Shown here piece by piece: positions 33,185-36,869 of a DNA stretch of 64,000 bases. Every line of letters begins with the position of its first letter. The first letter of the stretch is position 1. The notes beneath the pieces are model-generated. The model was not told the DNA's origin. It did not search any database and saw nothing but the letters and a program-made list of their open reading frames with translations. Both the position numbers and the translations under genes were made by a program. Source of the stretch: Betaproteobacteria bacterium RIFCSPLOWO2_12_FULL_68_20 (lineage in GTDB: Bacteria > Pseudomonadota > Gammaproteobacteria > Burkholderiales > SG8-39); the NCBI GenBank assembly GCA_001770655.1, contig MERQ01000080.1:15272-79271 (forward strand). The letters are read 5' to 3'.

Positions 33185-34546
33185 ATGGCCGCAATCCGAC
33201 CCGCCGCAGTCGCCGGGATGTTCTATCCGGGCGAGGCGCGCGCGCTCGCCGCCGAGGTGCAGGAGCTTCTCGGCGGGGTGGAGCACCTCGCGCCGCGGCT
33301 CGGCTTTCCCAAGGTCCTGATCGTCCCGCACGCCGGCTACATCTACTCCGGCCCGGTGGCGGCGCGCGCCTACGACGAGCTTGGGCCGGCGCGCGGCATC
33401 GTCAAGCGCGTGGTCCTGCTCGGACCGGTGCACCGCGTACCGGTACGCGGCCTCGCGTTTCCCGGCTGGGACGGCTTCGCCACGCCGCTCGGTGTGGTGC
33501 CACTCGATCGGGCGGCGCTCGCCGCCGTGCAGGGCCTGCCGCAGGTGGTGAAAAGCGACCCGGCGCACGCGCTCGAGCACTCGCTCGAGGTGCAGTTGCC
33601 GTTCCTGCAGAAGGTTCTCGGCGACTTCTCGCTTGCGCCGTTCGCGGTCGGCTCGGCGAGCGTGGACGAGGTCGCCGAGGTGATCGAGCGGCTGTGGGGC
33701 GGACCCGAGACGCTGATCGTGATCTCGACCGACTTGTCGCACTATCACGCGTACGACGACGCCAGGCGCATCGACGGCTCGACCGTCTCGCGCATCTCGG
33801 GCCTCGTCACCGACCTCGACCACGAGGAGGCATGCGGCGCGACGCCGCTCAACGGCCTGCTCGCGGCGGCGAAACGCCGCGAGCTCTCGATCCGGCTGCT
33901 CGCCGCGTGCAACTCCGGTGATACCGCGGGCGGCAAGGACCGGGTGGTCGGCTACTCCTCGTTCGCGCTCGACGAAGGCGGCGCTGTGTCGCACGATGAG
34001 GCGGGCGGCACGCTCGTATCGATCGCGCGCGGCTCGATCGCCCACGCGCTGGGGCTGGGCGAGGCGCCCGGGCGCGGCGGCGCGCCGTGGCTCGCGCAGG
34101 CGGGCGCGACCTTCGTCACGCTCACGCGGGAGGGGCGTCTGCGCGGCTGCATCGGCAGCCTCGAGCCGGCGCGCGCGCTCGGCACGGACGTCGCCGAGAA
34201 CGCGCTCGGCGCGGCGTTCCGCGACCCGCGTTTCCCGGCGCTCGCGCGCGACGAATGGCCCCTCTGCCGGGTCGAGGTGTCGCTGCTCTCGGCGCCGAAG
34301 CCCATCCGCTTCGCCGACGAGGGCGATCTTCTCGAGCAGATCCGCGCCGGCGAGGACGGCATCATTCTCGAGCACGAGGGAAGGCGCGCGACGTACCTGC
34401 CGCAGGTGTGGGAAAGCCTGCCCGACAAGCGCCGCTTCCTCGAGGAGCTGAAACGCAAGGCCGGCATCGCGTCGGAGGCGCGCCTTGCGCGCTGCCGGCT
34501 GTCGCGCTACCGGGTGGTGAAATGGACGCAAAGCGGCCCCAACTAG
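33185..34546 (+). CDS. AmmeMemoRadiSam system protein B (Memo-like) fused to protein A (AMMECR1 domain)
   Basis: 453 aa. The N-terminal half is Memo-like (AVAGMFYPG, VPHAGYIYSG). The C-terminal half is AMMECR1-like (FVTL...GRLRGCIGS, YLPQVWE). Confidence 0.85.
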   Translation: MAAIRPAAVAGMFYPGEARALAAEVQELLGGVEHLAPRLGFPKVLIVPHAGYIYSGPVAARAYDELGPARGIVKRVVLLGPVHRVPVRGLAFPGWDGFATPLGVVPLDRAALAAVQGLPQVVKSDPAHALEHSLEVQLPFLQKVLGDFSLAPFAVGSASVDEVAEVIERLWGGPETLIVISTDLSHYHAYDDARRIDGSTVSRISGLVTDLDHEEACGATPLNGLLAAAKRRELSIRLLAACNSGDTAGGKDRVVGYSSFALDEGGAVSHDEAGGTLVSIARGSIAHALGLGEAPGRGGAPWLAQAGATFVTLTREGRLRGCIGSLEPARALGTDVAENALGAAFRDPRFPALARDEWPLCRVEVSLLSAPKPIRFADEGDLLEQIRAGEDGIILEHEGRRATYLPQVWESLPDKRRFLEELKRKAGIASEARLARCRLSRYRVVKWTQSGPN

Positions 34547-35625
34547 AGACCTCGCATCCCGGGCGCTGGTGGCATGCGCTCGGCGACGGCCGCATCCAGT
34601 GCGACCTGTGTCCGCGCGACTGCCGGCTGCACGAGGGCCAGCGCGGCCTGTGCTTCGTGCGCAAGATGGAAAACGGCCGCATGGTGCTCACCACCTACGG
34701 CCGCTCCTCGGGCTTCTGCGTGGATCCGGTCGAGAAGAAACCGCTCAACCACTTCTATCCCGGCACCTCGATCCTCTCCTTCGGCACCGCGGGCTGCAAC
34801 CTGGCGTGCAAGTTCTGCCAGAACTGGGACATCTCCAAGTCGCGCGAGATGGACCGGCTGATGGACCAGGCGAGCCCCGAGACGATCGCCGCCGCGGCGG
34901 TGAAGCTCGGCTGCAAGTCGGTGGCCTTCACCTACAACGATCCGGTGATCTTCGCCGAATACGCGATGGACATCGCGGACGCCTGCCACGCGAAGGGCGT
35001 GAAGACGGTGGCGGTGACCGCCGGCTACATCCACGAGGCGGCGCGGCGCGAGTTCTACGCCAAGATGGACGCGGCCAACGTCGACCTGAAAGCGTTCACC
35101 GACGATTTCTACTTCAGGATCTGCGGCGGGCGGCTGCAGCCGGTGCTGGATACGCTCGTCTACCTGGTGAAGGAGACCGAGGTCTGGACCGAGATCACGA
35201 CGCTGCTGATCCCGGGCAAGAACGATTCCGAGGCCGAGATCGAGGCCGAGTGCAAGTGGATCATGGAGAATCTCGGTGCCGACGTGCCGCTGCATTTCAC
35301 CGCGTTCCATCCCGACTGGAAGATGACCGAAGTGCACGCGACCCCTGCGGCGACGCTGACGCGCGCGCGGGAAATCGCGCTGCGCCACGGACTGCGCTAC
35401 GTCTACACCGGCAACGTGCACGATGAAACCGGCGGCTCGACCTACTGCCCGTCGTGCAACAATGCGGTCATCGTGCGCGACTGGTACGACATCCGCGGCT
35501 ACCGCCTGACCGAAGCCGGCGCCTGCGCTTCCTGCGGCGCGAGGATCGCCGGCCGCTTCCAGACGTTCGGCCGCCCCTTCGGGCCGCGCCGCATCCCGGT
35601 CCGCCTCGCGCACGCGGCAGCTTGA
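34522..35625 (+). CDS. amrS: AmmeMemoRadiSam system radical SAM enzyme
   Basis: Last 367 aa of ORF 34087-35625. CX3CX2C in GTAGCNLACKFCQN and N-terminal CDLCPRDC. Overlaps the upstream gene by 25 nt. Confidence 0.9.
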   Translation: MDAKRPQLETSHPGRWWHALGDGRIQCDLCPRDCRLHEGQRGLCFVRKMENGRMVLTTYGRSSGFCVDPVEKKPLNHFYPGTSILSFGTAGCNLACKFCQNWDISKSREMDRLMDQASPETIAAAAVKLGCKSVAFTYNDPVIFAEYAMDIADACHAKGVKTVAVTAGYIHEAARREFYAKMDAANVDLKAFTDDFYFRICGGRLQPVLDTLVYLVKETEVWTEITTLLIPGKNDSEAEIEAECKWIMENLGADVPLHFTAFHPDWKMTEVHATPAATLTRAREIALRHGLRYVYTGNVHDETGGSTYCPSCNNAVIVRDWYDIRGYRLTEAGACASCGARIAGRFQTFGRPFGPRRIPVRLAHAAA

Positions 35626-36869
35626 GCTCGCCCGGCTCGGGCGGCTGGCTCGCGTGGCTGTGCGCGAGCCGCGTGCTGTCGGCGGCCTGGTTCGTGGCGT
35701 ACTCGGCGGTGCTGCCGCTGGTGCGCGAGGCCTGGGGACTGTCGGCGCGCGAGGCCGGCATGATCCAGGGCTCGTTCCATCTCGGCTACCTGGTGTCGCT
35801 GTTCGTGGTCGGCTTCCTGGCCGATCACTTCGGTGCCAAGCGCGCGTTCCTCGTCACCGGCGTGGCGGGGTTCCTCACTCCGATCCTGTTCGTCGTGTTC
35901 GTCGAAGACTTCTGGTCGGCGCTGTGGCTGCATGCGCTCACGGGGCTTACGCAGGGCGGCTACTACACGCCGGTGCTGGCGATGGTGAACGACAACGTCG
36001 AGCGCCAGCGGCGCGGGCGCGCGATGGGCTTCCTGATCGCGGCTTCGAGCGCGGGTTACGCGCTCGCGCTCGGCACGGCGGGCCTCGTGCTGACCTTCGC
36101 CGGATGGCGCAGCGCGCTCTGGGTGCTCGCGGTGATGCCCGCGCTCGCCTGGGCGATCGCCGTGGTGGCGCTGCGTGGCACGCCGAACACCGTGCATCCG
36201 CGGCCGGCGGGGCACACCGTTCTCGCCTCGATCCCAGCGGTGCTGAAAAACAGAAACGGCATGCTCTCAGTGTGGGGTTACACCTTCCACAGCTGGGAGC
36301 TGCTCGGGCTTTGGGCGTGGCTGCCAGCGTTCCTCACCGCCTCGTTCGTCGCCGGCGGCATGAGCCCGGCCCAGGCCGCGGCGGCCGGAATCTCGCTCGG
36401 CGCGCTCACCTACGTCGCCAACATCGGCGGCAGCATTCTGGGGGGCGTCATGGCCGACCGCTGGGGGCGCACCCAGACCATCCTGCTGTGGTCCTCGGCG
36501 AGCCTCGCGCTTTCGTTCTCGATCGGCTGGCTGATCGCGCTCCCGGCCGGGCTGCTGGTCGCGCTGGCGTGCCTGTACAACCTCGCCGGGATCGCCGACT
36601 CCTCGGTGCACTCGACCGTGATCGCGGAGAGCGTGCCGCCGCACATATTGGGCGCGGCCTACGCGGTGCGCTCGGTGCTCGGCTTCGGCACCGGCGTGGT
36701 GAGCCCGGTGGTGTTCGGCTGGGCGCTCGACCTCGCGGGCGCGGGCGAGGCCCCGGCCGATGCCTTTGCTTGGGGCGTCGCCTGGTCGACGCTCGGGCTG
36801 GGCGGGCTGCTGGGGCCGCTCGCCACCTGGCGGCTGCAGCGCGCATCGGCGCCGCGTCCGTCGGGCTGA
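35622..36869 (+). CDS. MFS transporter
   Basis: C-terminal ~415 aa of ORF 35454-36869, about 12 hydrophobic helices. TTG at 35622 overlaps the rSAM stop (TTGA). The start is uncertain. Confidence 0.8.
   Translation: MSSPGSGGWLAWLCASRVLSAAWFVAYSAVLPLVREAWGLSAREAGMIQGSFHLGYLVSLFVVGFLADHFGAKRAFLVTGVAGFLTPILFVVFVEDFWSALWLHALTGLTQGGYYTPVLAMVNDNVERQRRGRAMGFLIAASSAGYALALGTAGLVLTFAGWRSALWVLAVMPALAWAIAVVALRGTPNTVHPRPAGHTVLASIPAVLKNRNGMLSVWGYTFHSWELLGLWAWLPAFLTASFVAGGMSPAQAAAAGISLGALTYVANIGGSILGGVMADRWGRTQTILLWSSASLALSFSIGWLIALPAGLLVALACLYNLAGIADSSVHSTVIAESVPPHILGAAYAVRSVLGFGTGVVSPVVFGWALDLAGAGEAPADAFAWGVAWSTLGLGGLLGPLATWRLQRASAPRPSG

Follow-up and report, generated by a model that had tools for sequence, protein, structure and literature searches.

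The stretch of DNA analysed here (64,000 nucleotides of contig MERQ01000080.1 from the Betaproteobacteria bacterium RIFCSPLOWO2_12_FULL_68_20; hereafter the window) carries at positions 33185–36869 three + strand open reading frames (ORFs) in succession, overlapping one another: an amrB-amrA fusion gene, the radical S-adenosylmethionine (SAM) enzyme gene amrS and a gene for a transporter of the major facilitator superfamily (MFS). The region is best read as a canonical cytoplasmic AmmeMemoRadiSam (amrB-amrA/amrS) operon, situated between a run of housekeeping genes and recA-recX in an uncultured Burkholderiales bacterium, with the MFS gene as an accessory; we put the probability of this reading at roughly 0.8. 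Conservation of AMMECR1 and MEMO1, which have been linked to human disease, reaches from archaea to humans, and no reaction is known either for them or for the prokaryotic three-gene system. The locus itself offers little novelty: fusions of this kind are frequent and have been annotated before, and the MFS coupling, which is real, belongs to one sub-clade only and is weak evidence on the substrate. The follow-up adds quantitative support for B and A as one unit (recurrent fusion, a difference of about a single stop codon between the fused and split states and a confident compact fold) and a clear negative result, namely that no transporter or other fourth gene accompanies the system in general.

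All three NCBIfam profiles of the system score above their cut-offs (26 bits for TIGR04336, 99 for TIGR04335 and 220 for TIGR04337), which bears out the initial annotation of these genes as an AmmeMemoRadiSam system. The fusion gene (33185–34546) encodes 453 residues, made up of a Memo-like half, a short variable linker and an AMMECR1-like half, and holds the four motifs by which it had been recognized (AVAGMFYPG, VPHAGYIYSG, GRLRGCIGS and YLPQVWE). The Memo (protein B) half, residues 5–261 (33197–33967), matches TIGR04336 with 241.4 bits over profile positions 1–269 of 270, and the AMMECR1 (protein A) half, residues 276–446 (34010–34522), matches TIGR04335 with 174.7 bits over profile positions 2–174 of 175; the Pfam scores are 141.3 bits for Memo (PF01875; cut-off 27) and 148.2 bits for AMMECR1 (PF01871; cut-off 25). 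The linker between them (residues 262–275; 33968–34009) is the sole poorly conserved stretch in the alignment. The 367-residue product of amrS (34522–35625), which contains the CX3CX2C motif, scores 644.5 bits against TIGR04337. Neither the fusion protein (BA) nor AmrS has room for a signal or twin-arginine translocation (Tat) peptide, because the family profiles begin at residue 5 of BA and residue 15 of AmrS. The co-occurrence of BA and amrS is perfect, the same 23 of 41 related genomes having both, and in a set of 71 diverse loci 52 have amrS no more than 8 kb from BA. With the AmmeMemoRadiSam system as defined by its families (TIGR04335, amrA; TIGR04336, amrB; TIGR04337, amrS) the region thus shares the presence of all three together, the order B, A, radical SAM enzyme and the CX3CX2C motif, but it differs in that B and A form one polypeptide, a sub-architecture of about 25% of the sampled Pseudomonadota systems, and in the translational coupling of an MFS gene to amrS, a trait of one sub-clade only.

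The genes are arranged with no space between them. The ATG of amrS (34522) lies inside the 3' end of the fusion gene, the stop codon of which is the TAG at 34544–34546, giving the 25-nucleotide overlap (34522–34546) that was initially annotated; amrS starts overlap likewise in the nearest relatives (L015, L018 and L050). At the other end of amrS, its TGA (35623–35625) and a TTG in the MFS frame (35622) together form a TTGA start/stop overlap (35622–35625), also as first described, and the MFS gene extends from there to 36869 (415 residues). A sequence scan revealed no sigma-70-like promoter or intrinsic terminator within 33185–36869, and terminator-like matches in an 8.3 kb scan numbered three, against 3.9 expected by chance; the MFS gene is most likely co-expressed with the operon. 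The G+C content dips to 0.653 over amrS (34500–35499), compared with 0.71–0.73 in the fusion and MFS genes.

Upstream, the gene for a CinA C-terminal (PncC-like) domain (32706–33164, + strand; PF02464, 184 bits) ends 20 nucleotides short of the fusion gene and closes the conserved run ribBA-ribH-nusB-thiL-pgpA-cinA. The order ribBA-ribH-nusB-thiL-pgpA-cinA-[BA-amrS]-...-recA-recX is found in every family relative with the system. Clustering of all ORFs from the 71 diverse loci gave no recurrent fourth partner beyond BA and amrS; the best non-core cluster covered ten loci and reflected lineage synteny only. Such lineage neighbours include a CysQ-like gene, Sua5 and a flavin adenine dinucleotide (FAD) oxidase in the Rhodospirillales types, a divergent IspD gene in the Rhodocyclales types and an alpha/beta hydrolase in the Nitrosomonas/Thiobacillus types. 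Since the surroundings of the system are always housekeeping genes and no fourth partner is conserved with it, its substrate is probably a ubiquitous cell constituent and not a niche metabolite. In a proposal attributed to Burroughs et al. in 2019, the Memo clade is said to be linked to the modification of nucleotide bases and aliphatic isoprenoids.

The split relatives encode B and A in adjacent genes, and the passage between the split and fused states has been frequent. A maximum-likelihood tree of 97 B+A sequences contains 13 fused/split changes, at least six of which are forced by well-supported branches, although a quick method was used for the tree, which calls for some caution with the support values; on this tree the fused state arose or reverted repeatedly. 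The repeated fusion of genes that are always adjacent is classical evidence that their products act together. AlphaFold2, run with a 68-sequence alignment, predicts the 453-residue chain to be one compact body and not two beads, with a mean predicted local distance difference test score (pLDDT) of 95 and a predicted template-modelling score (pTM) of 0.92. The recurrent fusion and the compact fold prediction support a putative physical complex of B and A, so that the suggestion to this effect made from the single fusion is strengthened. B and A would then work as a fixed complex, and the 5'-deoxyadenosyl-radical chemistry supplied by AmrS would act either on a substrate that this complex holds or on the complex as such.

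The distribution of the MFS gene is narrower than that of the system. In the BA tree the window falls in an all-fused clade of 16 rows (100% support) from one Burkholderiales family, and an MFS orthologue (67–84% identity) adjoins the system in 12 of these, following amrS in 11 and preceding BA in one (G010). The gene is missing from the locus in three clade members (G007/L018, L078 and L051) and lies on another contig in G019. The sister clade (13 rows) has no MFS gene at the locus, the orthologue of one of its genomes (G017) being found on another contig, and about 65 systems further removed, in other families and phyla, are without an MFS homologue inside 8 kb. An MFS homologue within that distance is confined, among 80 named loci, to the four closest (L050, L052, L053 and L054). 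An even sample of the order (Burkholderiales, 301 genomes) yielded 45–52% identical homologues in four other families, none of them adjoining the system: two lie 30 kb (G215) and 90 kb (G126) from it and others are on other contigs, and G045 has a homologue where the system was not detected. The space between amrS and recA is itself variable in the family, being occupied by a DUF938, HIBADH, RAYT transposase or lipoprotein gene. The simplest reading is that the MFS gene is an accessory that entered by a single insertion at the 3' end of the operon in one sub-clade and was kept in most descendants; it would be dispensable for the system, for which the distribution shows no need of it. Its presence says little on the role of the system because the link is confined to one small related group, and we regard it as a local clue and not as a strong pointer to the substrate. 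An adjacency unique to this genome and combined with an independent promoter, which would have spoken against the initial reading, is nonetheless not what was seen: 12 of the 16 clade members share it, and no promoter-like site was found inside the unit.

The MFS protein matches PF07690 (MFS_1) with 119 bits over two stretches (cut-off 33.4), and a rough hydropathy profile fits a polytopic protein. MFS_1 is its only domain, and it has no SpeE-like one. No named MFS subfamily could be assigned (PgtP, aromatic acid:H+, D-galactonate, Bcr/CflA or others), all 26 NCBIfam matches being far below their cut-offs (best TIGR00881, 63.6 bits against 407.75). Among solved chains Spinster and VGLUT come nearest, both as weak matches (E values of 8e-9 to 1e-5). 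The TTG start is credible, since both its position and the (T/G)TGA overlap recur in orthologues: TTG or GTG occupies the equivalent position, right ahead of a conserved PGSGxWLAxLCASR motif, in 11 of 14 orthologues, and the four-nucleotide overlap with the amrS stop is present in six of 11 adjacent pairs, with gaps of 11–28 nucleotides in three more.

Several points weigh against the region being an ordinary AmmeMemoRadiSam operon with an accessory transporter. A literature search found no paper assigning a biochemical role to the system; a passage in a 2020 eLife paper mentions 'recently-described Memo-Ammecr1 systems (Burroughs et al., 2019)'. That one mRNA is translated for all three frames is something that we infer from the 25- and 4-nucleotide overlaps only. 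The only purine-rich element ahead of the fusion ATG, AGGAG at 33179–33183, ends one nucleotide upstream of it, too near for a textbook Shine–Dalgarno sequence, and the conserved N-terminus (profile from residue 5) leaves no room for an alternative start. The high pTM is a prediction and is silent on whether the two conserved pockets face each other. Lastly, the MFS gene has been kept intact and tightly coupled over about eight genera at 67–84% identity, and its family orthologue (more than 70% identical) has been seen only in genomes with the system (10/10).

These last two observations speak for the MFS protein as a true fourth component in its clade, importing a small-molecule substrate or exporting a product, with the system acting on a diffusible metabolite. 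The 12 adjacencies in 16 clade members and the close spacing of the paired genes point the same way, as does G010, in which the linkage outlived a rearrangement that placed the MFS gene upstream of BA, and no disrupted copy was met among the orthologues examined. Against this stand the origin in one acquisition in one clade and the behaviour of the gene within that clade, where it was lost in three members and moved in a fourth while BA-amrS stayed, together with the absence of an MFS homologue within 8 kb in the 13-row sister clade and the roughly 65 other systems. The 45–52% identical homologues lie 30–90 kb off or on other contigs, at least one of them in a genome in which the system was not found, and the amrS-recA site receives different genes among relatives. 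The 10/10 association is not significant, because 19 of 25 family genomes have the system and kin are not independent. A role of the transporter as a fourth component is therefore unlikely in our view, and it is similarly doubtful that carrying the substrate or product of the Memo-AMMECR1/AmrS reaction is the dedicated task of the coupled MFS protein in this sub-clade. Were it so, an orphan system with the human disease-gene relatives MEMO1 and AMMECR1 would act on a small molecule that crosses the membrane, and a lipid or isoprenoid substrate would agree with the weak similarity to lipid carriers of the Spinster type. The initial proposal that the coupled transporter indicates such a substrate or product is thus only weakly supported: the coupling is real, but it is conserved inside one clade only, in 12 of its 16 members.

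A second alternative concerns AmrS, which would act as a protein-directed activase resembling pyruvate formate-lyase activating enzyme (PFL-AE), with BA itself, for example at its RGCxG loop, receiving a radical or a post-translational modification, in place of a small-molecule or nucleic-acid substrate. AmrS contains three groups of cysteines: C27/C30/C34/C44, the SAM-cluster residues C92/C96/C99 and C309/C312/C335/C338, and all eleven are invariant in 78 of 78 homologues; the motif GCNLACKFC supplies C92/C96/C99 of the CX3CX2C SAM cluster (nucleotides 34795–34818). After its own family, the best NCBIfam matches are all to glycyl-radical-enzyme activases (PFLE_PFLC, 55.9 bits against a cut-off of 174.35; PFLA, 55.2 against 231.75; YjjW, 49.6; NrdG, 32.4), and the only solved relatives are PFL-AE structures (nearest 3c8f, E value 2e-6). 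The strict co-occurrence with BA (23/23) and the invariant Gly/Cys loop in the A half would also suit an activase. However, AmrS is not a member of a glycyl-radical-enzyme activase family, as its scores against TIGR02493 and TIGR02494 lie far below the cut-offs. With PFL-AE and the other activases, its nearest characterized relatives, it has in common a radical SAM core and a CX3CX2C motif at the same position, whereas it adds an N-terminal CX2CX3CX9C motif and a C-terminal CX2C...CX2C motif, two four-Cys motifs that PFL-AE does not have, and no glycyl-radical enzyme is encoded nearby. Furthermore, 14 of 71 diverse fused loci have no amrS within 8 kb, and eukaryotes keep AMMECR1 and MEMO1 but are not known to have AmrS. 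Modification of BA by an activase-like AmrS therefore appears improbable, although AmrS may resemble the activases in mechanism.

AmrS is the most conserved protein of the unit, with 80–86% identity in the clade compared with 65–73% for BA. The orientation of its gene varies between lineages (loci L077, L083, L085–L087, L089, L090, L092, L094–L096, L098–L100, L103, L105, L107, L108, L110 and L112). In most alphaproteobacterial and gammaproteobacterial fused loci amrS is divergent from BA, and in the betaproteobacterial, actinobacterial and myxococcal loci it is on the same strand and follows BA.

The fused architecture is no discovery, for it is common, has recurred and was annotated before. 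Within the family, the fused frame is open over residues 1–450, with no stop, in all 18 of 24 other genomes that have the system (54–73% identity). A search of 5.8 billion proteins gave at least 8000 matches, the best 120 of which all carry both Pfam domains, and fused proteins are already labelled 'AmmeMemoRadiSam system protein B/AmmeMemoRadiSam system protein A' in IMG. In the order sample the system occurs in 142 genomes and is fused in 35 of these, over at least nine families; in a phylum sample (301 genomes) 33 of 127 systems are fused, the genome of the window not being counted. The frequency of B-A fusion, a question that the initial annotation had left to a survey, is thus about a quarter of systems in both samples. 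Fused loci are spread across the Alpha-, Beta- and Gammaproteobacteria, Magnetococcales, Actinomycetota, Myxococcota and Planctomycetota, and the named examples come from Thiobacillus, Sulfuritalea, Quisquiliibacterium, Rhodospirillales, Magnetococcales, Sphingomonadales, Bifidobacterium, Bowdeniella, Solirubrobacterales, Myxococcota and Planctomycetota. A false fusion produced by faulty sequencing or assembly, for instance through an indel or the loss of a stop codon in a metagenome-assembled genome, was named from the outset as a risk. It might be entertained because the genome is a 109-contig draft and because split relatives differ from fused ones only by stop codons at the linker, but it is refuted by the comparative data and has a negligible probability, the fusion being genuine because the same open frame is conserved in the 18 family relatives, recurs in 58 named loci from several phyla and among the database matches, and places the window in a 31-row all-fused clade with 96% support.

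How the fusion came about is suggested by the split loci. In 13 of the 20 that were examined, one reading frame runs through B and A, interrupted only by stop codons at positions 257–269, that is, in the linker, with a single stop in 11 of the 13; one point mutation would therefore interconvert the fused and split states, and the fusion most likely arose by loss of the B stop codon. The 13 loci (L070, L072, L073, L075, L076, L077, L080, L081, L089, L092, L108, L111 and L115) have hosts that include Nitrosomonas, Gallionella, Methylophaga, Thiohalophilus and Parendozoicomonas. Programmed read-through in such 'B-stop-A' pairs was considered and dropped, because the 20-locus sample is biased towards in-frame pairs, and in the less biased order and phylum samples in-frame single-stop split systems are rare (four and three, respectively) and show no enrichment.

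Conserved sites in the two halves of BA were identified by counting invariant positions over 68 fused sequences from several phyla. In the Memo half, H49, H83, H132, E135, D183, H186, C217 and D246 are invariant. H49 and H83 align in a phmmer alignment with the PHAGY and GPSH motifs of MEMO1, the metal ligands of which are His49, His81 and Cys244 (PMC9477392), and C217, which lies in an ACG motif, is matched to Cys244 by motif position only. Given the correspondence of the invariant H49/H83/C217 to these three ligands, the metal site of the Memo half looks intact. A Foldseek search with the N-terminal half gave MEMO1 (7l5c and 3bcz) with an E value of 1e-24, template-modelling (TM) scores of 0.79–0.80 and 25–26% identity. 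The Memo half thus resembles human MEMO1 (PDB 3bcz, 7kq8 and 7l5c; LigB-type extradiol dioxygenase fold) in its fold, two His residues and an invariant Cys, and differs from it in being bacterial, covalently joined to AMMECR1 and partnered by a radical SAM enzyme, whereas MEMO1 has no known radical SAM partner and its enzymatic role is unsettled.

In the AMMECR1 half, the invariant residues are R320, G321, C322 and G324 of the LRGCIG loop (RGCxG) together with LPQVW. Sequence matches of this half to solved AMMECR1 proteins have E values of 1e-12 to 1e-19, and Foldseek places it with the structures 1vaj, 1wsc and 1zq7 at TM scores of up to 0.78 (1vaj). Sequence, fold and the LRGCIG loop are shared with the AMMECR1 family (PH0010, 1vaj; ST0229, 1wsc; MM0484, 1zq7; human AMMECR1); in contrast to the domain described here, which is fused behind Memo, the solved archaeal proteins stand alone, and their function is unassigned. 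None of the Foldseek matches is a solved structure with both the Memo and AMMECR1 domains.

Downstream of the operon, 85 nucleotides past the MFS stop codon, lies a small lipoprotein-like ORF (36954–37421, + strand) with a weak TonB_C match (PF03544, 26 bits); it is outside the conserved unit and has a homologue in one relative only (L078). A DUF938 methyltransferase-like gene (235 bits; 6694–7296 in L017) that is absent from the window follows amrS in L018 and follows the MFS gene in L017 and L025. In the sister clade (L027, L028, L029, L030, L032, L033 and L021) a gene for a protein of about 290 residues is inserted between cinA and BA; this protein is class I SAM methyltransferase-like, with a signal/Tat-like N-terminus (MNLSRRRVLVALAAGA...).

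In G472 (L135, 5309–10654), from another family, the canonical split genes B, A and amrS are followed after 86 nucleotides by the gene for a polytopic protein of 946 residues that combines a spermidine-synthase-like domain with TPR repeats at its C-terminus. The genome of the window encodes a 994-residue homologue of this protein on another contig (L136, 3370–6354), unlinked to the system. Neither of these membrane/SpeE-like proteins has a Pfam MFS match, and tblastn detected no similarity (E ≤ 1) between them and the MFS protein. The adjacency in G472 may be incidental, the system and the gene for the SpeE-like protein being far apart in other genomes of that family.

Second copies of BA or amrS occur in G372, G364, G391, G469 and G001; they are signal-peptide-bearing or stand-alone, lack an MFS gene and are irrelevant to the locus in the window. 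Second, longer Memo-AMMECR1 fusions (510–630 residues) with N-terminal signal-peptide-like or membrane segments are encoded in L130 (1984–3516), L133 (8693–10276) and L134 (8303–10189), the genomes of which also carry the canonical system. A divergent radical SAM gene lies directly upstream of the long fusion in L130 and L134, and a membrane protein of about 430 residues is encoded after it in L130 and L133. In the close relative G001, L131 contains a second TIGR04337-like radical SAM gene (8615–9688; 357 residues, 225 bits) with no Memo or AMMECR1 gene adjoining it.

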